From positions 337 to 64,336 of the forward strand of contig JBAXSP010000004.1 in assembly GCA_037130655.1 (NCBI GenBank): a stretch of DNA of 64,000 bases, given 5' to 3'. The notes below the pieces were generated by a model. The model worked only from the letters and a program-made list of their open reading frames with translations, had not been told where the DNA came from and searched no databases. Below are positions 1,647 through 62,560 of this stretch, in pieces (the first letter of the stretch is position 1; each line of letters opens with the position of its first letter). This DNA is from a bacterium. GTDB taxonomy: Bacteria > Patescibacteriota > Minisyncoccia > Phycocordibacterales > UBA9973. Position numbers and translations under genes: made by a program.

Positions 1647-4600
1647 TTATTTCTTTTCTTCTTTTGGTTTTCCTCCACTTTCTATTTTTTCTTTATTTTC
1701 TTTGATTTTTGTTTTGTTTGAATCAATTTGAGTAGTCAATGTCTCTTTTTGTCGAGAGAAATTTTTTCTATCAGATGAAACGCTTCCCAAGAATTTCATT
1801 CGAGAACGAATCTTATCGAGTTCTTTCTTATCTACTGTTCCGCTCTGTTCTTTTTGATACAATTCGTCTCGTAATGTTTCATTTTGTTCGAAGACATAAT
1901 CTTCTACTGTTGTAGTAATCATATCTTGCAACTGTTTCTCTTTTCGAATAATATTCTTAGCCATTTCTTCAGCTGATTTCTTTGCCTTCTTCTTCTCGTC
2001 ATCACTCAGTTCCGTGAAATTAGCAGCTTGTTTATCAGCATCAGTCATGTCAACAAACTTACCAGTTGCTGCGTCTCGTTTTTTACCAAGCTTCTTATTG
2101 ATTTCATCCTCTTCAGTAAGAATTGCTTTCTTTTCATCAACAATTTTCTTATATTCTTCATTGTTTGCTTTGAGGTCATCGATTTTATCTTTCAACGGCT
2201 TAAGTTCTGCGTTATTTTCTATCAAACCAGTATTTCTTGCCAATGCGCTTTCTGCTGCAGTAACTCTTCTTTCATTCTCTTTATTGGCGCGTTCAAGATC
2301 CTCATTTTGATTTTGAAGCTTAACTGCATCAGCCTTGGCTTTTTCACTTTGTTTTGCGTATTTCTCTTTGATATCTTTGTTAATACGATTATCAGCAACA
2401 GCACTTCCTAAAAGAGAAGCACCTACTACAGCACCGACACCTGTACCAACCAAAGCACTTCCTGCAACCGAGCCTGAAAAACGACCTGCACCACCAACAA
2501 CACCCGCAGCAACAACCCCTTGTGTAGCCCTGTCATTATCTTTTGACCTACCAATAAAGCTGGTTGCCTTATTGAGCACAGATCCGGTAACAGAGAAGTC
2601 GTCAAATCTTGTATCGAGACGTGCCAATAGTTTTTCAAGGCGATCATCTTCGACTTTTTTACGCATAGCTTTGATATCTTCTGGTTTTGCATCTTTACCA
2701 AGCTCTTCAAATCGCTTGCCATATTTTGCTTCGTGTTTTTTCTTGAATTCTTCTTCAAATTTCTTTTTCTCGTCGTCTGTTTTTGCTGCATAATTTGCTG
2801 CAATTTTTTCTTTTTCAATTTTATCTTTATATATTGTTTCGTACTTTTCAACCTGATTATCATGCATTTCTTTAAACTGAGTATCTGTGACATGTGATAT
2901 TTTTGATTGTCGCTCGATTTCTTTTTCCTTCTTTTCTTGTCGTTCTTTTTGATATGTAGCAAATCCTGTTTTATTTGCATCAAGACCAACGGCCCCCATA
3001 GAAAGACCGGCACCTCCAAGAAATGCATTTGTAGTTTTACCACTCATATCGAAACCTGATACCTTACTAAAACCACCTGACACCGCATTAAATCCTTTTG
3101 TATTTCTTACATCAAAAGAACCGTCTTTTGCTTTGTCAAAAGTTTTGAGACCAAGTTTTGCAAATTTACCACTAATACCACCTTTTGCTTCGGCCGCAGC
3201 CAATCGTTCAGCAAGCTTTGCTCCTGTCCCACTTGTTGCTGCAGCACCAAGTGTATTTCTTCCTATTAAAGCAGCTCCGCCAGTTGCCGCACCGAGAGCA
3301 ACACCACCAACAACACCTGCGGCTTGTGTAATTTTCCCTGCCAACTCCTTTGCAACTGATCCAGCCAAACTTACCGCAGTATCTTTTGCTTTTCCAAGCA
3401 TCACGATAATGAATATAAATGGCATGACAACTCCTAATATCCAAGAAGTGTTTGATTCGCCTGACTCCTTCAAAAGAGGTGCTCCGATTTGCACAAACAA
3501 CAATATCAAATACATAAACACCATAAAAATAGGTGCCATCATTGCTATCTTAAATGTCTCTTTCAACCAAGAATCAAATGAAATACCTCCCATTTTCCAC
3601 CCTTTTGGAAGAATATTAGAAACAAAAGCAAGTGGAGAAGTGATTGTCTGCACCCAAAGACCAATGACTCGTCCAACAAATAATATTCCTATCTTGAAGA
3701 AAATACCTGCACCAATCACATTAAGAATAACTGCGCAGATAGTAATGAGAATAAATGTAGTATTATCCAAATCACCACCACTACTAGCCTCGTTTCTTCC
3801 TGCATTTTTTGAATTTACATCATCATAAAGCTTGTCTTTTCCTTCGAGTACAATACGCTGTGGGTCGAAACCAGAAACAATCACCTCCGACATTCCATGA
3901 GCAACAGTTCGCTCGCCAGTACTTCTATCTATTTTGGTTATAGCGATTGTGTCTGAGTTATAAAACAACCTGGCCGTCACGTTCCCTGTATCAATAATAA
4001 TTCGAGTCAAGAAAAAACTAAAATTAATCGTAACCGCAGCAATAATAATCGGTATAATCATTTTTTTCCAATCAACACCACCTGTCTCAAGTAATGTACC
4101 GATTGCGATGTACATCATCATTACAATAAAAGCTATATTACAAAGATCACGCACAAGTGCCCACGCCTTTTGAACAAACTGCGATGAATTATCATAAGAA
4201 GAACTTTGAATCGAGTAGTCGAAAGTAAAATCAAACAACATACCCGCAACCATAAAGAGCCAAGATGTTGGTACATATAAAACATAATAGAGTAACTGCG
4301 CAAAACAACCTGACATCGAAATACCATCTGAAACACCCAGCCAGCATCTTGGCATACTTTCATCCGGATCAAGTGCACCTGCTTCACCTGACTGCTCAAG
4401 TGTGCCATTTGTCAATCCAATAGTTCCTTCTGCTTTATAATTAGCACCCCCAACCTGATCACTACCACCAGTCTTAAAAGTCATATTCTTAATAACATCA
4501 CCTCCTAGACCTTTATTAATTAATACTAATTGGGCAACATAATCAGTACCACTACCCAATCCCTCTATACGAAAAGATCCTTTTGTTTCAATATTTTGTG

Positions 4601-5135
4601 TATTAATTTGGATAGGAAATAAGAAAGCATTATTTGGAATAGAGCTGACACCCGAAACAGGAGTTGTTCCTTTATATACAACAATAAAAGCAGCATTATC
4701 TATTTTAATGTTTCTAATGGATTCATAATAAACAGCGCGAACCTTGGGAACGTCTTGCCCTGCGACTGTTTCTTTTTGAGAATAACCTATTTCAAGATCA
4801 TTCTTGCTATCAAAATAAACAGCGGATCCATATACCTGTACTTTATATGTACCATTGGCTTCTGCTGTTGGTTTATTGTTCCCAACATAATCATCTGCAT
4901 AATAATCAATTGTTTTCACTAAATTATTTGTTGAAACAAGGTCATATTCTATTTCATGTGTAGAATACCCTGTGTAATTACCTTTTGTACGAATATAACT
5001 TTTACTAAAATCATCGGACAAAGTAGATGCTTTTGCTATATTGGTAGAAAATCCTTGCAAAGAAAAAACAAGCGGAGAAAAAGCCAAGACTCCGAGAATC
5101 AAACTTATTACGCTCTTGGAAAAAAAGCGATACAT
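1647..5135 (-). CDS. Large polytopic membrane protein, possibly VirB6/TrbL-like, with Gly/Ala-rich and KE-rich coiled-coil C-terminal region
   Basis: 1162 aa. N-terminal signal/TM (MYRFFSKSVISLILGVLAFSPLVFS). The central region has multiple hydrophobic helices (e.g. LLYYVLYVPTSWLFMVAGMLFDFTF, IAFIVMMMYIAIGTLL, IIPIIIAAVTINFSFFLTRIIID). It sits in a cluster with PrgI and the VirB4-like gene. Confidence 0.4.
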   Translation of the reverse strand: MYRFFSKSVISLILGVLAFSPLVFSLQGFSTNIAKASTLSDDFSKSYIRTKGNYTGYSTHEIEYDLVSTNNLVKTIDYYADDYVGNNKPTAEANGTYKVQVYGSAVYFDSKNDLEIGYSQKETVAGQDVPKVRAVYYESIRNIKIDNAAFIVVYKGTTPVSGVSSIPNNAFLFPIQINTQNIETKGSFRIEGLGSGTDYVAQLVLINKGLGGDVIKNMTFKTGGSDQVGGANYKAEGTIGLTNGTLEQSGEAGALDPDESMPRCWLGVSDGISMSGCFAQLLYYVLYVPTSWLFMVAGMLFDFTFDYSIQSSSYDNSSQFVQKAWALVRDLCNIAFIVMMMYIAIGTLLETGGVDWKKMIIPIIIAAVTINFSFFLTRIIIDTGNVTARLFYNSDTIAITKIDRSTGERTVAHGMSEVIVSGFDPQRIVLEGKDKLYDDVNSKNAGRNEASSGGDLDNTTFILITICAVILNVIGAGIFFKIGILFVGRVIGLWVQTITSPLAFVSNILPKGWKMGGISFDSWLKETFKIAMMAPIFMVFMYLILLFVQIGAPLLKESGESNTSWILGVVMPFIFIIVMLGKAKDTAVSLAGSVAKELAGKITQAAGVVGGVALGAATGGAALIGRNTLGAAATSGTGAKLAERLAAAEAKGGISGKFAKLGLKTFDKAKDGSFDVRNTKGFNAVSGGFSKVSGFDMSGKTTNAFLGGAGLSMGAVGLDANKTGFATYQKERQEKKEKEIERQSKISHVTDTQFKEMHDNQVEKYETIYKDKIEKEKIAANYAAKTDDEKKKFEEEFKKKHEAKYGKRFEELGKDAKPEDIKAMRKKVEDDRLEKLLARLDTRFDDFSVTGSVLNKATSFIGRSKDNDRATQGVVAAGVVGGAGRFSGSVAGSALVGTGVGAVVGASLLGSAVADNRINKDIKEKYAKQSEKAKADAVKLQNQNEDLERANKENERRVTAAESALARNTGLIENNAELKPLKDKIDDLKANNEEYKKIVDEKKAILTEEDEINKKLGKKRDAATGKFVDMTDADKQAANFTELSDDEKKKAKKSAEEMAKNIIRKEKQLQDMITTTVEDYVFEQNETLRDELYQKEQSGTVDKKELDKIRSRMKFLGSVSSDRKNFSRQKETLTTQIDSNKTKIKENKEKIESGGKPKEEKK

Positions 5136-5263: not shown

Positions 5264-7540
5264 TTATTGTCCAATTCCAAAGATTTTCTCAAATGTACTA
5301 CTGAAACCACATTTGTTTTTTGTATCATACAGTGGCTGTTGGCTTTGTTTAACACTATCATAATATGTCTTTCCTGTGTCATATGCTAAACCTAAATTAT
5401 ATCCATCTGACCAACTAATATCTGATTTACAATTAAATCCAATTCCATCACCTACTACACCTTGACCGTAGTCAAATGCTGCAAACGATCGCTGAACAGC
5501 ATCTTGTATGCCGGCCCACGGAACACCACCCTTTTGTTCTTTGTCTTCTTTTCCAAATGAATAAAATACATTCGTATTTGCATCTGCACGGGGATTGTTA
5601 TAATTAGTATACGAAACACTACCGTCTTTATTATACCGAGGAACATTAATCTTATAACCACCAACATCATCATCATCATCATACAAAGACTCACTTAAAT
5701 GTGTCCACGATAAAATCAATTCCTGTCCTTGTTTATGATTATCCCAACGACAATCTTGTGTATCCCCTGAGGCACTTGCTTGATCTGTGTCAAAAATAAT
5801 CGAACTATCAACATAAAATGGTGCGATTCGACGTTTTGGACTCTTTGATGGATCTGGCACCAAATCTCCATTTGCAATATCTTGTGTTTGCTCCTGACAG
5901 ATTGAGGTTAGTTCTTTGACGTAATTTTTTGAATTTTGTAATTCTTCAATATCATGACCGATACCTGCGATTGCTTCTGGTGTACGAATCTGTGGTAGTA
6001 ATCTGAAAAATTGTCTGAGCAACTTGTCATATTCCGCTTGTTCATCAGTTGTCAAAATAATTGGTGTATTTTGTCCTGAAGTACCATTTGAACAAGTATT
6101 TCCTGTAGTGTCTGGAACATAAGTATCAGTGTCGAAGAAATTATCCTTGTCGAGGTCTGGGCAGTATATTTTTTGCAAATTTAACGGAAGATTATCACAC
6201 AAATCAGTTCCTGTATTTGTTGTTTGTATTTGAATACTAGTATTTGCACGAAGGGTTTTACCTGCTTTAGTAACACAAGAGATAGCATAGCGTGAATCTT
6301 TGTTTTTTGGAGTTACTCCAAAATTTTGTACTGGAGTGGTGTTATCAGGTACAGGTTTTGAGCCGATCCATGACGATGTATCTACACCCCCAGTAGAAAC
6401 AGTTGCTCCTGCTCCGACTCCTTCACAAGAAGCAAATGCTGTGCCTGCAGGTGAAAACCAAAAGAGTGTACTTGTACCGTCTGGTTGCACCACTTCCGGT
6501 GAAGCAATCAAAGATAATTCTTTTGAAGCATCAGCATTTGGATTACATTCTGGCATCAAAACAGAAACATTTGCAGGATATATACTACAATCTTTTGTTG
6601 TATTCCCTGATGTTCCATCGTCAAGAATAAGTGCCACTTGAGCAACAACATATTCTTTTGGTGGAGTAGTGTCTGCTGTTTCTACCTGACTCTCTGCAGT
6701 ACCAAAACCAATAGTACTTGCAGTTTCAGTTTTTGCAGTAGAACTTAGTTGTGCTTGTACTGGTTTTTCACAGGTGAGCACATAGATAATTTCTTTGTCA
6801 CCATATGGCATTTGAGTTTTTTTGGTTTGCGGTTTTGTAGGTACTGGCTGTTTACCATTCCAGTTATATAACTTACTTTGTACATACGCAGTTGCGTTGA
6901 CACCTTTTGATTTCAAATCTTTTTGCTGATAGACCCCACCCGCATATGAACCAACGCAGCTTGCAAAATCCATTTTTGTTGGAGATGACCAAGAGATAGT
7001 GAGTTGATCTTTTGTTTTCGCCGTATCAGTTGAAGCGGTCACTACCAAATCTTTGGTTGCAATCGTATCTCTTTTGATTAACTCTTTGAGTGCATCCTCA
7101 TTGTTTGAGGGAATAGCAGAAGGTCCATTGTCTGAATTTGTATCTAATACATCTTGCAATAATTCAGTAGACGTATCTTTGCTATCAATAACACCATCTT
7201 TGTTGGTATCAATCACTGCATCTTTGTTGTTGATTACACCATCACCATTGGTATCTTTGGTTGGAATAAGTGAACCTTTTAAAGGAATAGTACTTCCGGT
7301 GGTTGATGATGCACTTGTGTTGTTTGTAGCATCTTCTGCTGTACCATTTTTGATGGTATCTTTTTTCTTTGGCAAAAGATTCCCAAGATCGACAAAAAAT
7401 TGCGCGCGTTGATTTGCGTCTTTGGTGATAGGATTTGCAACTTGCTTACTACCAATCAGTATCGCCAAAATTGCAACGACTAACACAACAAAAATAAGTG
7501 CTACTATTTTTATTCTTTTTTTCTTTTCTTCATTCATCAT
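5264..7540 (-). CDS. Secreted or membrane-anchored hypothetical protein with Asp-rich calcium-binding-like repeats (DTNGDGVINNKD / DTNKDGVIDSKD)
   Basis: 758 aa. N-terminal TM (IVALIFVVLVVAILAILIG), Thr/Ser-rich linkers, and tandem D-x-D-G-D-G-like repeats typical of thrombospondin type 3 or dockerin-like Ca-binding loops. Confidence 0.5.
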   Translation of the reverse strand: MMNEEKKKRIKIVALIFVVLVVAILAILIGSKQVANPITKDANQRAQFFVDLGNLLPKKKDTIKNGTAEDATNNTSASSTTGSTIPLKGSLIPTKDTNGDGVINNKDAVIDTNKDGVIDSKDTSTELLQDVLDTNSDNGPSAIPSNNEDALKELIKRDTIATKDLVVTASTDTAKTKDQLTISWSSPTKMDFASCVGSYAGGVYQQKDLKSKGVNATAYVQSKLYNWNGKQPVPTKPQTKKTQMPYGDKEIIYVLTCEKPVQAQLSSTAKTETASTIGFGTAESQVETADTTPPKEYVVAQVALILDDGTSGNTTKDCSIYPANVSVLMPECNPNADASKELSLIASPEVVQPDGTSTLFWFSPAGTAFASCEGVGAGATVSTGGVDTSSWIGSKPVPDNTTPVQNFGVTPKNKDSRYAISCVTKAGKTLRANTSIQIQTTNTGTDLCDNLPLNLQKIYCPDLDKDNFFDTDTYVPDTTGNTCSNGTSGQNTPIILTTDEQAEYDKLLRQFFRLLPQIRTPEAIAGIGHDIEELQNSKNYVKELTSICQEQTQDIANGDLVPDPSKSPKRRIAPFYVDSSIIFDTDQASASGDTQDCRWDNHKQGQELILSWTHLSESLYDDDDDVGGYKINVPRYNKDGSVSYTNYNNPRADANTNVFYSFGKEDKEQKGGVPWAGIQDAVQRSFAAFDYGQGVVGDGIGFNCKSDISWSDGYNLGLAYDTGKTYYDSVKQSQQPLYDTKNKCGFSSTFEKIFGIGQ

Positions 7541-23429: not shown

Positions 23430-23674
23430 AGAAGGTCATTGGTGGTGAAAAATCGCCATATATAGCATTGAGCCATATAATAAAAAGAGTATAGTTGCCA
23501 CTAGAATGAAAAAATATTTCAGACCATTTTTAACAATCACCCCTTCGGTGTTAGCTTCTTCTAAATTTGTCATAATACTAATTGATTTGCTCCATTTCAA
23601 TTATGCGCTTATGCAAAACTTTTGCAAGACGACAATCACATCTCCATTGTGCGACACTACGCTATAATAGAAAC

Positions 23675-24589
23675 ATGTACGATCTCGCTCAACTCAAACG
23701 CCAGTTTCTCGAACACGTTGAAATAGAAAAAGGGCAGAGTCTCAAAACGGTCGAAAATTATGACCGCTACCTTACTCGATTCCTCGCTTTTGCCAAGGTC
23801 ACCGACCCCAAAGATATTACCGATGATATTGTTCGTGAATTTCGTCTTTTTCTCAACAGACAAACTGGAATGAAGGTTCGCGGTCAATCTGCCGCCACCA
23901 TGAAGCGCAACACACAAAACTACTATCTTATTGCGCTTCGTGCATTTCTTCGTTATCTCATGAAAAGAAATGTCACTTCCCTGCCACCCGATCGTATTGA
24001 GCTCGCAAAGATCAAAGAGCGTCACTTAGACTTGATGACGACAGCAGAACTACACCGCCTCCTTGAAGCACCAGACAAAACAACATCTGTTGGACTTCGT
24101 GACAAAGCAATCCTTGAATTATTTTTCTCCACCGGACTTCGTCTTTCCGAACTCTGTTCACTCAATAGTGATTTAGATTTATCACGAGATGATTTTTCTA
24201 TTCGCGGAAAAGGTGAGAAAGTTCGTGTTGTCTTTTTGTCTGAAGAAGCAAAGCTTGCTATTCGTGAATATTTGAAATCTCGCAAAGATATGAATGAGGC
24301 ATTGTTTGTGCAAATTTCAAAAAACAATATCGGTACTGGCCGTCTGACCCAACGTTCAATCGAGCGCATTGTTCGTCATTACGCAACCAAAGCCGGTATT
24401 TCAAAAAAAGTTACTCCACACGTTATTCGTCACTCATTCGCCACCGACCTCCTTTCCAACGGTGCAGATATTCGTAGTGTGCAGATGATGTTGGGTCACG
24501 CAAACATTGCAACAACACAGATTTATACCCACGTGACCGATGCACAACTGAGAGATGTTCATAAGAAATTTCACAGCAAAAGAAAATAA
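23675..24589 (+). CDS. Tyrosine site-specific recombinase, XerC/XerD family
   Basis: N-terminal SAM-like domain. C-terminal catalytic residues ...LGLRLSEL..., HVIRHSFATDLLSNGADIRSVQMMLGHANIATTQIYTHV (R-H-R-Y). The start was set at MYDLAQLKRQF. Confidence 0.85.
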   Translation: MYDLAQLKRQFLEHVEIEKGQSLKTVENYDRYLTRFLAFAKVTDPKDITDDIVREFRLFLNRQTGMKVRGQSAATMKRNTQNYYLIALRAFLRYLMKRNVTSLPPDRIELAKIKERHLDLMTTAELHRLLEAPDKTTSVGLRDKAILELFFSTGLRLSELCSLNSDLDLSRDDFSIRGKGEKVRVVFLSEEAKLAIREYLKSRKDMNEALFVQISKNNIGTGRLTQRSIERIVRHYATKAGISKKVTPHVIRHSFATDLLSNGADIRSVQMMLGHANIATTQIYTHVTDAQLRDVHKKFHSKRK

Positions 24590-27213: not shown

Positions 27214-28764
27214 TTATTTCACTCCATGCTTCTTTCGCAACTTCCCTACTTCCTCCCCTTCCAACTCCTCTTTTTTTTCTTTCGCCTTCTCCCCTAGTTC
27301 TTTCAATGTTACGTCATCCATTTGTTCGTATTCCTTTACTCGCTCTGTCAGTGTTTCAATGGTGTTTTTACTTGGATCATCCAGCACTTCTTCGAGTAAT
27401 GCATTCAACATCCAGCCCATGCGTGGTCCGGCTTTGATTTGCAGATCATTCATCAAGTAATTCCCGTCTATTGCCAGCTGTTTCACCGAAATCGGATCAC
27501 GCAGACACTCTTCGATCATTGCATGATATTTACGCAAACGGTACGGGGCTTCAGTCTTACTCATTCCTACTCGGTCACATTCGCGCACCTGCATCAACTC
27601 CCAGATATGATCAACACCAACATTTGCCACCACTCTACGTACAGCAGAGAGTGTAATTTGTTCTGTATCAGAGAAAAACATATGCCGACGCACCATATTT
27701 GTTACATACACAACTGTTTCCCGTGAAAACTTCATTCTATCCAATATTTTTTGAGTCATTTTTGCCCCGACGACTTCGTGTCCATAAAAGGTTGGTTTTA
27801 CCTTAGCGCTTGGCGTTCTTTTTGTTCGTGGTTTTCCAATATCGTGAAAAAGCGCTGAAAGACGGATATCAGTCGAATATCCTTTGTCAGCAGCGTGTTG
27901 TACAGCACCCAGAAGATGCTCGAATACATCATAGATGTGAGCCCCACCTTGGTGACAACCGATTCCCTCTTCAAGTTCAGGGATAATGTATGTAAGTAAT
28001 CCCAATTTCTGCAGCAAAGCAATTCCTTGTGCAGGACGTGGACTTTCGATTATTTTGACAAACTCATCTCGAATTCGTTCTTGTGAGATGTTTTCTATCA
28101 ACTGTGCATGTTCAGCAATTGCCGCCAATGTCTCCCCTTCAATAGCAAAATCCAAGACTGTGGAAAACCTCACGGCACGTAACATACGCAAAGCATCTTC
28201 AGAAAATCGTTCTATCGGACTTCCGACCGTTTTGATTATTTTGTCTTTTATATCGGACTGTCCGTTATAAAGGTCAAGTATTGTGTCCTTTTCTATACTA
28301 TAGGCCATAGCATTGACCGTAAAATCACGACGTCCGAGATCTTCTGAAACGTTTCTTGTGTAACAAACTTCATCTGGATGACGATTATCACTATATTTAC
28401 CTTCCTTACGGAAAGGTGTGACTTCTACCATATAGTATTCCGTTTCATCTGAAACGATAGTATTTGTGTCACGTGAAACGTTTTTATCTAGATTTATAGG
28501 CGTTTCTTGTGTAACAATAGGAATACAGACACCAACAGTACCGAAAGTGTTCTCATAAACCGTCTTCTCAAAGAGTCCTTGAATCTCCTCAGGAGTAGCG
28601 CTTGTTGTTAGATCCCAGTCTTTGACATCTCTACCTAAAAACATATCTCGGACACAGCCACCAACAACAAAAGCCTCAAAACCAGCATTTTCGAGTTTTT
28701 GTGTTACATATGTAACATAAGAGGGAATTAGTTCTTTGTTTATTTTTTTAGGCGTTTGTTGCAT
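27214..28764 (-). CDS. cca: CCA tRNA nucleotidyltransferase (polyA-polymerase head domain + HD domain)
   Basis: VVGGCVRDMFLGRDVKDWDLTTSATPEE nucleotidyltransferase motif, RDFTVNAMAY, and an HD domain (LSALFHDIGKP). Confidence 0.85.
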   Translation of the reverse strand: MQQTPKKINKELIPSYVTYVTQKLENAGFEAFVVGGCVRDMFLGRDVKDWDLTTSATPEEIQGLFEKTVYENTFGTVGVCIPIVTQETPINLDKNVSRDTNTIVSDETEYYMVEVTPFRKEGKYSDNRHPDEVCYTRNVSEDLGRRDFTVNAMAYSIEKDTILDLYNGQSDIKDKIIKTVGSPIERFSEDALRMLRAVRFSTVLDFAIEGETLAAIAEHAQLIENISQERIRDEFVKIIESPRPAQGIALLQKLGLLTYIIPELEEGIGCHQGGAHIYDVFEHLLGAVQHAADKGYSTDIRLSALFHDIGKPRTKRTPSAKVKPTFYGHEVVGAKMTQKILDRMKFSRETVVYVTNMVRRHMFFSDTEQITLSAVRRVVANVGVDHIWELMQVRECDRVGMSKTEAPYRLRKYHAMIEECLRDPISVKQLAIDGNYLMNDLQIKAGPRMGWMLNALLEEVLDDPSKNTIETLTERVKEYEQMDDVTLKELGEKAKEKKEELEGEEVGKLRKKHGVK

Positions 28765-28947
28765 ACAAACAATTTTGTGCGGGGTAGGAGAATCGTTCCT
28801 TACAGGAACAGTACCCTAATTGGCTGTTTTGTTTCGCATTGCTCCACAAAACAGCTCAATCAGGCTTCGATTCTTTGCTCGTGTTTCATAAGAAACACTT
28901 GCGCTTACCCCACACAATAACTAAGGAAATATACAGTATTTTTATTG

Positions 28948-29018
28948 TGCGGGGTAGGAGAATCGAACTCCTGTCTCATCCTTGGCAAGGACGCATTCTA
29001 CCACTAAACCAACCTCGC
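28948..29018 (-). tRNA. tRNA-Gly (anticodon GCC)
   Basis: The reverse complement folds as a cloverleaf. Anticodon loop CCTTGCCAAGG, T-arm AGGAGTTCGATTCTCCT, and acceptor GCGAGGT/ACCCCGC with one A:C mismatch. Confidence 0.7.
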
Positions 29019-29089
29019 TATTATTTTTTAATACGACTATTATAACGACTCTTTCATAAAAAAGCAATTTGTGTAATAATGCAACTATT

Positions 29090-29161
29090 GCACTTGTGGT
29101 GAAATGGATATCACAGCGGTCTTCGGAACCGTTATTCTGGGTTCGAGTCCTGGCAGGTGCA
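29090..29161 (+). tRNA. tRNA-Arg (anticodon TCG)
   Basis: Acceptor GCACTTG/CAGGTGC, D-arm GTGAAATGGATATCAC, anticodon loop CTTCGGA, T-loop GGGTTCGAGTCC. Confidence 0.7.
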
Positions 29162-29348
29162 CAAAAAAAACGTAGTTTTTCCTGTCTCCGCAAGTGTTTT
29201 CCTTAGAAAACACGAGGACGGACTCGAAAAGCTTTTGTAGTAGATTTCGGGCACCATAAAGAAATCTACTCAAAAGCTGTACTGTTCCTGTAAGGAACGA
29301 GTCCTGGCAGGTGCACCAAATAGTAAGTTTACTTATAAGTCCTTAATA

Positions 29349-29376
29349 TAAAAGCCGGTCTTTAAGACCGGCTTTT
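29349..29376 (+). terminator. Intrinsic terminator downstream of tRNA-Arg and its partial copy
   Basis: aaaagccggtctttaagaccggcttttat. Confidence 0.65.
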
Positions 29377-29606
29377 ATATTAGAGACTTCCTTTTTATCC
29401 CCTTATTTTTACTGATAATTTTATTGAAACTGTGGATAACTCTGTGTATATTGTGTATAAGACAGTCTCTTTGGTATGAAGGTCAAATGTATTTTATAAT
29501 AAAAAACCTTTATTTTATAAGCTTTTTTATAAAAAGACGACCAATATGTAGGTTTTTAGACTTTTACACACAGGACTTTTATTCACAAACGTATAATTAA
29601 GAATAT

Positions 29607-30654: not shown

Positions 30655-30711
30655 GACTTCCCGCACATAAGAAAAACCCTCAATATTGAGGGTTTTTCTT
30701 ATGTGCGGGAT
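30655..30711 (-). terminator. Long perfect hairpin (24-bp stem) formed by the tRNA-Gly(TCC) 3' trailer folding back onto the tRNA acceptor/T-stem 3' strand
   Basis: cccgcacataagaaaaaccctcaa-tatt-gagggtttttcttatgtgcggg. The right arm is the tRNA 3' end itself. Confidence 0.6.
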
Positions 30712-30774
30712 AAGAGAATCGAACTCTTGTCCCCTGCTTGGAAGGCAGGTATTCTACCACTAAACCAATCCCGC
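30704..30774 (-). tRNA. tRNA-Gly (anticodon TCC)
   Basis: Acceptor GCGGGAT/ATCCCGC perfect, anticodon loop CTTCCAA, T-arm AGAGTTCGATTCTCT. Confidence 0.75.
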
Positions 30775-62192: not shown

Positions 62193-62460
62193 ACAGATAA
62201 ATTATACAGGAATCGATCACAGATTACTAAAGCTATTTGTTTCGGTGGGAATCCCTCCTTACAGGGGCAGTAAACTTACAGTTTCTGTACACCTTTTGGA
62301 TATTTTTTCATAGGAATCGATCACAAGTATTTTTCACCAGAAAAATCTCGCGACCCCGCCTCGCCTATTTTTCGGGTGAAAAATTAGGGCTCCGGCTTTC
62401 GATTCCTACACGCAAAGCAAAATTGTTTGCTTCGCTCGAGGGGACACAAAAATAAAAACT
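62193..62460. repeat. Repeat-rich region next to tRNA-Lys: a 14-bp direct repeat pair around an 86-bp insert, a double TTTTTCACCAGAAAAA / TTTTTCGGGTGAAAAA palindrome (MITE-family copy D), and an inverted, interrupted copy of the tRNA-Lys 3' end
   Basis: aggaatcgatcaca at 62204-62217 and 62304-62317. 62323-62385 tttttcaccagaaaaatctcgcgaccccgcctcgcctatttttcgggtgaaaaa. 62397-62445 ggctttcgattcctac[acgcaaagcaaaattgtttgcttcgct]cgaggggac matches the tRNA-Lys T-loop-to-acceptor sequence on the opposite strand. Confidence 0.5.
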
Positions 62461-62487
62461 GCACAAATTGTGCAGTTTTTATTTTTG

Positions 62488-62560
62488 TCCCCTCGGTAGG
62501 AATCGAACCTACGACCATCTCCTTAAAAGGGAGCTGCTCTACCGACTGAGCTACGAGGGG
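62488..62560 (-). tRNA. tRNA-Lys (anticodon TTT)
   Basis: Perfect acceptor CCCCTCG/CGAGGGG, D-arm GCTCAGTCGGTAGAGC, anticodon loop CTTTTAA, T-arm TAGGTTCGATTCCTA. An unusual C at position 1. Confidence 0.7.

Follow-up and report, generated by a model that had tools for sequence, protein, structure and literature searches.

A protein-less insertion family at tRNA genes of Patescibacteria that carries sense and antisense copies of its target

Genomes of Patescibacteria are tiny, their tRNA genes are mostly present as single copies, and the mechanism is known for few of their mobile elements. In a 64,000-nt stretch of DNA from a member of this phylum (assembly GCA_037130655.1, contig JBAXSP010000004.1; hereafter the window), the divergent genes for tRNA-Gly(GCC) and tRNA-Arg(UCG) are each followed by a short insert that ends in a second copy of that tRNA's own 3' part. 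What are these inserts, and how did they come to lie behind two different tRNA genes? An earlier note, made from the sequence alone, had described both inserts and read them as miniature tRNA-targeting elements, or relics of a larger one, with the footprint of a tyrosine integrase; its observation is confirmed here and its interpretation is partly supported. Protein-less inserts of ~130-250 bp lie 3' of three tRNA genes in the window, those for Gly(GCC), Arg(UCG) and Lys(UUU). They belong to a Patescibacteria family that is polymorphic for insertion among relatives. Our preferred reading, which we hold tentatively and at somewhat short of an even chance, is that of a miniature, non-autonomous, site-specific element that integrates at the tRNA T-loop as a target-mimicking folded single strand.

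The tRNA genes were called with ARAGORN and Rfam, and the precursor folds are minimum-free-energy (MFE) folds. tRNA-Gly(GCC) is located at 28947-29018 on the minus strand (ARAGORN; Rfam tRNA, 60.5 bits) and tRNA-Arg(UCG) at 29090-29162 on the plus strand (ARAGORN, Rfam). The two inserts have in common a hairpin, GCAAGTGTTT..AAACACGAG, termed P1, and the 22-nt GTACTGTTCCTGTAAGGAACGA, and are alignable over P1, the junctions and the 22 nt around an 18-mer, CTGTTCCTGTAAGGAACG. This 18-mer occurs exactly twice in the 64 kb, at 28794-28811(-) and 29282-29299(+), where the chance expectation is zero even allowing 3 mismatches. At each occurrence the 18-mer overlaps or adjoins a copy of the tRNA upstream of it, which starts at T-loop position C56 and extends past the discriminator, as the earlier note had claimed: CGATTCTCCTACCCCGCACAA for Gly (21 nt; 28775-28795, minus strand) and CGAGTCCTGGCAGGTGCAC for Arg (19 nt; 29298-29316, plus strand). 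The Arg copy is followed by the native trailer and then by the native terminator, now located at 29350-29376. What had been called an identical 18-nt palindrome is identical in the two window copies; in structure it is a hairpin, G3-C17 with a GUA loop, and only an imperfect palindrome. Both junctions are reproduced by two independently assembled Logan contigs from the same sample.

The tRNA-linked units are an insertion polymorphism, as comparison with related loci (designated here by L numbers) makes clear. The gene adjoining the Gly element is cca, which encodes the CCA-adding enzyme. In L044, where cca is 89% identical, tRNA-Arg is followed by 13 nt and then the cca ATG, with no insert; in L045 (cca 70% identical), tRNA-Gly(GCC) and tRNA-Arg(UCG) are both present and neither has one; scanning L044 and L045 with the covariance model R1 likewise yields no copy. 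In L043 (cca 95% identical), an element does lie between tRNA-Arg and cca, and the stem of its terminal hairpin, P3, is compensatorily changed (GAATC/GATTC). Within the syntenic cluster of tRNA-Arg, Gly-GCC, Pro and Gly-UCC, the occupied tRNA differs by genome: Arg and Gly-GCC in the window, Arg and Gly-UCC in L004, Gly-UCC only in L030, Pro only in L033, and none in L045. The ~140-bp units are therefore insertions, as had been proposed, with insert-free orthologous alleles in L044 and L045.

The extent of the family was determined from two sets, namely the exact 18-mer in a genome collection and a P3-independent pattern (guide end plus P2 base, described below) in metagenomes. The exact 18-mer was found at 41 genome loci, 29 of them from Patescibacteria (Paceibacteria, Saccharibacteria, Zambryskibacteria and others), and all 29 have the same architecture; the rest are chance matches without a covariance-model match, save a marginal one of 21.6 bits directly over the 18-mer in L020. 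The P3-independent pattern matched at least 120 metagenome loci. The matches listed contain ~158 copies, confined to Patescibacteria loci, and cargo-carrying relatives exist, which bears out the idea of a miniature tRNA-targeting family. Among these copies, 99 have a tRNA gene within 400 nt upstream (<=400 nt), and every one of the 99 is co-oriented with it, covering 32 anticodon classes and 18 amino acids. The remaining copies are mostly at contig ends, in tandem arrays (L081, L143, L111) or in tRNA-less arrays such as L046, where multiple element sites occur with no tRNA on the contig. The earlier note would have given up a mobile insert if no insert-free allele existed and the 18-mer stood beside no other tRNA; such alleles do exist, and so do other tRNAs beside the 18-mer. 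Its view that identical ends are a feature of the element has to be dropped: the 18-mer is a covarying hairpin whose window version is found in only 3 of 124 copies among the matches listed, and it is the same in the Gly and Arg copies only because these two are close relatives.

Searches for a previous description gave little. The 18-mer has no match in viral contigs. Rfam gives no match over the window elements at E<=10 and none at E<=1 in 12 other loci; in both sets only tRNAs and hairpin noise are returned. A literature search by sequence and by topic returned no description of the motif, only a paper on group I introns and general papers on the Candidate Phyla Radiation (CPR). Judged by Rfam 15 and the literature that could be searched, the family is apparently undescribed.

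How is such an element built? Throughout the family, the order on the tRNA strand, 5' to 3', is a zig-zag: the tRNA through X (its functional 3' part), trailer, tip hairpin, anti-X with P1, core, and X'. Anti-X is the exact antisense of the trailer and of X back to T54, and is split by the P1 module at positions 62-66; its inner part, the guide, is antisense to the T-stem 3' strand and T-loop and ends in ..TCGAA. The core is a three-way junction, GAA(G)CC-P2-GGGGUA-P3, in which P3 has the form CUG-N4-(U)GUA(A)-N4'-CG; that is, CUG and the antisense of positions 56-52, the loop (U)GUA(A), and then sense X' from position 52-56. X' is the second tRNA copy, which runs from position ~52-56 to the tRNA end and beyond and decays with age. 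The resulting direct repeat measures 19-21 nt in the window and 8-48 nt family-wide, its 5' boundary being fixed in the T-loop. In about half of 24 examined copies, the tip hairpin doubles as an intrinsic terminator. Perfect pairing of the arms can reach 32 bp and take in the non-conserved trailer (L058, L076), and only ~95 nt of sequence is element-specific.

The two window elements follow this plan. In the Gly element, all on the minus strand, X (from T54) occupies 28948-28967; the 5' arm TTATTGTGTGGGGTA (28906-28920) is antisense, with one G·U, to the acceptor 3' strand and trailer (TACCCCGCACAATAA) by sequence and is paired with it in the MFE fold; the P1 module (GCGCAAGTGTTTCTTATGAAACACGAGC) is at 28877-28904; the inner arm or guide, AAAGAATCGAA (28866-28876), is antisense to the T-loop and T-stem 3' strand TTCGATTCT by sequence and fold; P2, GCCTGATTGAG..CCAATTAGGG with a variable tip, is at 28815-28865 (covariation; conserved G·U); and the junction GTA with the P3 hairpin, which is the 18-mer, is at 28794-28814. 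In the Arg element, on the plus strand, X runs from T54 at 29142 through 29161; the 5' arm CCTGTC (29181-29186) is antisense, again with one G·U, to GGCAGG of the T-stem/acceptor 3' strand, and the inner arm GGACTCGAA (29220-29228) to the T-loop/T-stem TTCGAGTCC, both by sequence and fold; P1 lies between them at 29190-29216. P2 (AGCTTTTG..CAAAAGCT, 29230-29278) keeps the helix though its sequence differs from that of the Gly P2, and the junction GTA with P3 is at 29279-29299, within a match to model R1 at 29214-29313 of 81.8 bits. The antisense segments, which the earlier note had missed, differ between the two copies exactly as the tRNAs do, while the 18-mer is the same in both and P1 is near-identical.

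Covariation was evaluated in a 62-sequence alignment with 500 shuffles and slid controls. Pairing reaches 97% in P3, where each pair shows 6-30 double compensatory changes, and 89% in P2, which has G·U/G-C alternation and a conserved G·U; in the inner guide:X' helix it is 74-97% for individual pairs (~86% overall), with alternation among UA, AU and CG. These values were reached by 0 of 500 shuffles, and the slid controls collapse. Among the matches listed, P3 stems occur in more than 40 compensatory variants, and the conserved part of P3 comprises C1, G3, the GUA loop and C17-G18 (= C56 G57).

The pairing also has a direction. In 24 of 27 copies the tRNA-sense strand gives a better fold than its complement. 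Counted over 66 distinct elements, the X:anti-X arms have 1060 pairs of Watson-Crick type, 15 G·U and 1 A·C. A double-stranded palindrome would give no G·U bias, so a single strand of sense polarity, either RNA or single-stranded DNA (ssDNA), is under selection. The arms match X and not X' in 25 of 27 informative cases, a figure from ungapped comparison that is partly inflated by indels in X'; the substitution cases L021, L031, L036 and L123 agree that the arms follow X. Since the arms match the working tRNA, X' is the decaying, displaced copy.

If the family moves, which enzyme moves it? All-against-all clustering of the flanking open reading frames (ORFs) reveals no recurrent protein family beside the ~158 copies; the only clusters are syntenic housekeeping genes and spurious ORFs that span the element. 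A Xer-like recombinase is encoded at 23582-24589 of the window; it was considered as a partner and rejected, as homologues lie near only 3 of ~120 metagenome loci listed; they are probably there through conserved gene order, because at least one of the three (L123) is at the same tRNA-Gly(GCC) as in the window. No DEDD/serine recombinase gene of the IS110/IS1111 kind was found among linked ORFs beside the copies, and the 8-48 nt duplications also misfit such an element.

L113 and L046 contain relatives in which the same module bounds 2-3 kb of accessory genes. L113 has the layout tRNA-Asn, E1, X' and 95-nt repeat, 2.8 kb, E2, same repeat; its modules are at 3290-3560 and 6320-6570, each followed by the 95-nt direct repeat, and the cargo encodes a 532-aa secreted protein and DUF817. 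In L046, sites at 2540-2930, 4380-4640 and 6430-6650 lie between RhuM/Fic, MOSC and zeta-toxin genes, and each is followed by a conserved promoter-like stretch. These arrays are integron-like, with no integrase on the contig, and none of the L046/L113 cargo genes (Fic/RhuM, zeta toxin, MOSC, DUF817, secreted protein) is a recombinase. The 532-aa protein of L113 was examined as a hidden recombinase and set aside: it carries a signal peptide, matches nothing in Pfam and is without relatives in the other loci.

In the mechanism that we favour, the element would move as a single strand of tRNA-sense polarity, in which X pairs with its antisense copy to form a duplex that mimics the target tRNA gene, beside P2/P3 as a structural handle. 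A recombinase acting in trans, from the host or a helper, would exchange strands in the conserved dyad-symmetric T-arm (GGTTCGAATCC). Replication would then fix the insertion, so that the element-borne X completes the tRNA and the original 3' end is displaced as X'. The logic would be that of CTXφ attP(+) integration and of integron attC sites, and cargo-less copies such as the three in the window would represent the minimal form. Such a folded single strand would account for the order X, (cargo), anti-X, core, X', for the tandem arrays, for the decay of X', for the lack of an encoded enzyme and for the tiny size.

Several points weigh against this mechanism. No candidate recombinase emerged from the flanking ORFs, no excised or circular form was seen, and a single enzyme for all T-arms is a postulate. 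Bringing the 3' end of one tRNA into another would produce a chimeric tRNA, so retargeting needs an extra step, for example conversion from X' followed by correction of the antisense arms; this step would have to be fast, because the Gly and Arg copies of the window have near-identical P1, identical P3 and different arms. The complementary strand of the mimic is broken by the P2/P3 junction exactly at the T-loop crossover, where a classical tyrosine recombinase would want a continuous duplex. Some copies must be transcribed, as there is little promoter room for the Gly element between tRNA-Gly and cca, and action at the RNA level would fit the G·U bias equally well. Finally, the two window elements lie 300 bp apart in opposite orientations, so no replication-strand retention rule applies. 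A version in which the element is gene-less, its arms, antisense to the 3' third of the target tRNA, determine the target and are re-copied from each new one, and its core is a small ribozyme or a handle for a novel structure-specific, sequence-independent recombinase seems doubtful to us.

The G·U bias leads to the strongest competing explanation, which we regard as possible but not probable: that the unit, transcribed with the tRNA or by read-through from it, is a structured RNA whose three antisense arms clamp a pre-tRNA or tRNA gene around C56/G57, while its P2/P3 junction forms a core for catalysis or protein binding. Its mobility would be RNA-guided or ribozyme-catalysed, for example by a reverse-splicing-like insertion followed by copying, or else the RNA would regulate tRNA 3' maturation or the downstream gene. 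The arm-core-arm topology is that of trans-acting ribozymes and guide RNAs, with the arm 5' of P2 pairing with positions 57-65 and the arm 3' of P2 (the P3 5' strand) with 52-56. The excess of G·U over A·C (15 to 1), the conserved P2 G·U and the better folding of the sense strand are all as expected of an RNA, and so are the position of the Gly element within a tRNA-Gly-cca transcript, 11 nt before the ATG, and a conserved P2-tip motif, GA-NN-GAA-N'N'-GA, that is possibly a protein-binding K-loop-like feature. In about half of the examined copies no terminator separates the tRNA from the arms, but in the other half a strong intrinsic one does. A conserved upstream promoter is impossible because the sequence there is target-derived; no Rfam ribozyme or guide family matches the window elements or the 12 loci; the junctions misfit the hammerhead, hairpin, twister, pistol and hatchet consensus sequences, as compared by hand; and the flanking ORFs include no reverse transcriptase or RNA-guided protein. 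Perfect arms of up to 32 bp that extend into non-conserved trailers would also be hard to reach via guide evolution. Two more specific RNA models were rejected: H/ACA- or C/D-like guide RNAs have a similar topology, but boxes are absent and the arms would be blocked by X' in cis; and the arms complement the genomic trailer and not CCA, as the primer-binding site of a tRNA-primed retroelement would.

Three further explanations were weighed. The inserts may be collapsed att-site relics, remnants of tyrosine-integrase islands similar to cis-mobilisable elements (CIMEs), in which the hairpins are arm-type or accessory-protein sites with no single-strand role. This is close to what the earlier note proposed, and what speaks for it is the direct repeat, which begins in the T-loop, runs past the end of the tRNA and, at 8-48 nt, is a classic attL/attR footprint; cargo-carrying and tandem versions exist as well, X' decays as a displaced attR half should, and L044 and L045 supply the insert-free (attB) alleles. 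Three features, however, are left unexplained by plain attL/attR sites: that every element holds an exact antisense copy of its target, that the G·U bias is strand-specific, and that the three-way-junction core is conserved. As no integrase lies in or beside any of the ~158 copies listed, nor in the cargo versions, as each copy holds the exact antisense of its own target, as the helices covary instead of conserving sequence like protein-binding sites, and as the cores are near-identical across 32 tRNA targets, we consider these relics unlikely. A replication artefact, that is, a sense-antisense-sense triplication through template switching between T-arm and terminator hairpins with no mobile element, would explain why the zig-zag of X, anti-X and X' turns at hairpins, and a core-less 23-bp palindrome at the tRNA-Gly(UCC) gene of the window (see below) is in keeping with it. 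This very improbable account is largely refuted because homologous P1/P2/P3 and junction nucleotides recur at 32 tRNAs and at non-tRNA sites, and independent slippage cannot create them. An old, non-mobile tRNA operon structure, such as a lineage-specific 3' processing or terminator structure, would fit elements that are always downstream of and co-oriented with tRNAs and whose arms track the functional tRNA; it is refuted by the insert-free L044 and L045, and given also the patchy occupancy of the syntenic cluster and the copies in terminator loops, in tandem arrays and on a contig without a tRNA (L046), it retains hardly any probability.

Which known systems does the family resemble? One close parallel is the integrative mobile element exploiting Xer (IMEX) CTXφ, which uses host XerCD on a folded ssDNA attP(+): here too, inverted target-like copies ~65-100 nt apart fold into a target-duplex mimic, no recombinase is encoded by the element, integrated copies lie in trapped tandem arrays, and the structure is strand-specific. 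Unlike CTXφ, the elements target the tRNA T-arm instead of dif, can be as small as ~130 nt and gene-less, have a mimic tailored to 32 targets, and have its complementary strand broken by P1 and the three-way junction. In the present family the ssDNA state is a postulate, and so would be any part played by Xer. With integron attC sites, cassettes and clusters of attC sites lacking integron integrases (CALINs), the family has in common covarying helices of free sequence, a single folding strand, bounded promoter-less or small accessory cassettes, and arrays without a nearby integrase (L046, L113). In contrast to attC, no R/L boxes (R''/L''/L'/R'), extrahelical-base signature or IntI were identified, the sites insert into tRNA genes and hold the 3' end of a tRNA as both copy and anticopy, and some cassettes are followed by a promoter-like stretch of their own.

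Islands at tRNA genes offer a further comparison. A T-loop sublocation class of tyrosine-integrase islands at tRNA genes was reportedly recognised by Williams in 2002. Such islands and CIMEs are alike in T-loop insertion, an element-supplied 3' end and a direct repeat past the tRNA end, and cis-mobilisable gene-less derivatives are known; the present elements differ in having no linked integrase, in being 10-100 times smaller, in their antisense target copy and covarying RNA-like core, and in that one family serves nearly all tRNA species. Relative to the described tRNA-integrating elements, the novelty lies in the target anticopy, the covarying three-way-junction core and the near-universal tRNA range. 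Transposable elements of the miniature inverted-repeat kind (MITEs; Correia/CREE, RUP and IS630-derived) and the palindrome-associated elements and repetitive extragenic palindromes related to IS200/IS605 (PATEs/REPs) are likewise ~100-250 bp, non-autonomous, multicopy and strongly hairpin-forming. Only the non-tRNA subtype described below, with its ends like terminal inverted repeats (TIRs), its location in palindromic terminators and a possible TA duplication, resembles MITEs further; the tRNA-linked copies have target-specific ends and 8-48 nt duplications with one fixed edge, and no matching transposase or full-length insertion sequence was found in the loci.

Guide-bearing systems, namely the IS110 bridge RNA, the exon- and intron-binding sites (EBS/IBS) of group II introns and the homing guides of CRISPR-associated transposons (CASTs), are similar in that element segments are complementary to the target on both sides of the insertion point. 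They are unlike the present family in that no IS110 recombinase, reverse transcriptase or Cas gene was found, the arms here all pair with the same target strand and reach non-conserved trailers, and the target duplication is long. Patescibacteria tRNA genes are also hot spots for group I introns, which are small, protein-less and RNA-structured as well (PMC13011429). Those introns interrupt the tRNA at position 35/36 in the anticodon loop, match the Rfam group I model and self-splice (Nakagawa et al. 2026, PMC13011429), whereas the elements described here follow an intact tRNA, have a core of ~65-100 nt and match no intron model.

One core family of ~100 nt has thus spread to the 3' ends of almost all tRNA species while leaving the tRNAs intact, and it brackets accessory-gene cassettes. 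If its arms guide insertion, it would be a minimal retargetable integration module; if they are re-copied for each target, it would be a naturally programmable, base-pairing-guided insertion system of ~100 nt; and if it is a folded single-strand att site, it would extend the principle of CTXφ and integrons to tRNA genes and to a new phylum. Either way, the family gives studies of horizontal gene flow in uncultured CPR bacteria something concrete to test, and it has a practical bearing on tRNA annotation, assembly and 3'-end processing studies in Patescibacteria. Several public contigs end within elements, namely L042 (244 nt before cca), L043 (which starts in the T-loop), and L028 and L035 (which start in P3); it is therefore probable that the family breaks up Patescibacteria assemblies at tRNA loci.

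The surroundings of the Gly and Arg elements have features of their own. When positions 27214-29380 of the window are compared with L043, L044 and L045, tRNA-Arg leads to cca in these closest relatives, and in L045 tRNA-Gly(GCC) leads to a terminator and yraN; in the window the tRNA pair is inverted together with both elements, so that cca lies behind Gly, and the terminator and yraN behind Arg. An inversion by crossover between the two window elements was rejected because the X' copies would be swapped, which is not seen. The P2 of the cca-side element resembles the P2 of the Arg element of L043. The cca ATG (28762-28764) begins 11 nt beyond the duplicated, CCA-less tRNA-Gly 3' end (both within 28762-28795), and the Gly element thus forms the 5' leader of cca, which makes co-transcription with cca probable; autoregulation of cca through a tRNA-minihelix mimic was considered. 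The second Arg copy reads GCACCAAA at 29310-29320, with an encoded CCA, and the working copy reads GCACAAAA at 29155-29165; the CCA is probably a chance 1-nt difference, because L043-L045 have no encoded CCA.

The third insert, which was absent from the earlier note, is a compound element at 62241-62486 on the minus strand, behind tRNA-Lys(UUU) (62487-62560), with a weak covariance-model match. Its order is a terminator, the anti-acceptor segment TGTGTCCCCTCGA, P1, the guide TGTAGGAATCGAA, a core of type B, X' (CGATTCCTA) and a nested type-A remnant that bears P3-like hairpins. The type B core (AGCCGGAG..GGCGGGGTCGCGAG..; layout AGCCGGAG..hairpin..CGAGGCGGGGTCGCGAG..hairpin..GTGAT|CGATTCC) is a second core type on the same scaffold, which is found at many tRNAs in other loci.

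Some variation was also observed in X' and at the helix tips. One X' subfamily has a bulge of +1/+2 nt after T-loop position ~59, and in L006, L007, L009, L015, L088 and L094, X' contains a 14-nt mini-hairpin, (A/G)TGTACTCA(T/C)GG, after position ~59, just 3' of P3. The conserved GTACTCATGGTCC after P3 was considered as rRNA, but no rRNA was found; it is this mini-hairpin within X'. The tip motif GA-NN-GAA-N'N'-GA recurs at the P2 and X/anti-X tips (L048, L056, L079, L110; window 28835-28850); with its tandem G·A pairs, 2-bp stem and GAA loop, it recalls K-loop or GA motifs and may be a protein-binding site.

Occasional copies have the opposite orientation to the adjoining tRNA (L032 6303-6520, L004 2741-2837), and in L032 the element is flanked by a 37-nt direct duplication of the anticodon-stem-to-T-arm part of tRNA-Phe. 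A non-tRNA subtype lies in palindromic terminator loops (L039 1507-1700, L026 3055-3260, L011 6954-7110, L024 1750-1900); its ends, TAGTCTTATCAARGGGG / CCCYTTGRGAAGAGCTA, are TIR-like, and a TA may be duplicated. Metagenome-assembled genomes labelled Paceibacterota and Saccharibacteria share an identical 92-nt core of this subtype, which suggests recent horizontal spread. Finally, behind tRNA-Gly(UCC) (30703-30774) in the window there is a 23-bp perfect palindrome, TCCCGCACATAAGAAAAACCCTC/GAGGGTTTTTCTTATGTGCGGGA (30659-30710, minus strand), which joins the acceptor 3' end, trailer and terminator and has no P1/P2/P3 core; it may be what is left of an element, a stage before one, or a quasi-palindrome of independent origin.

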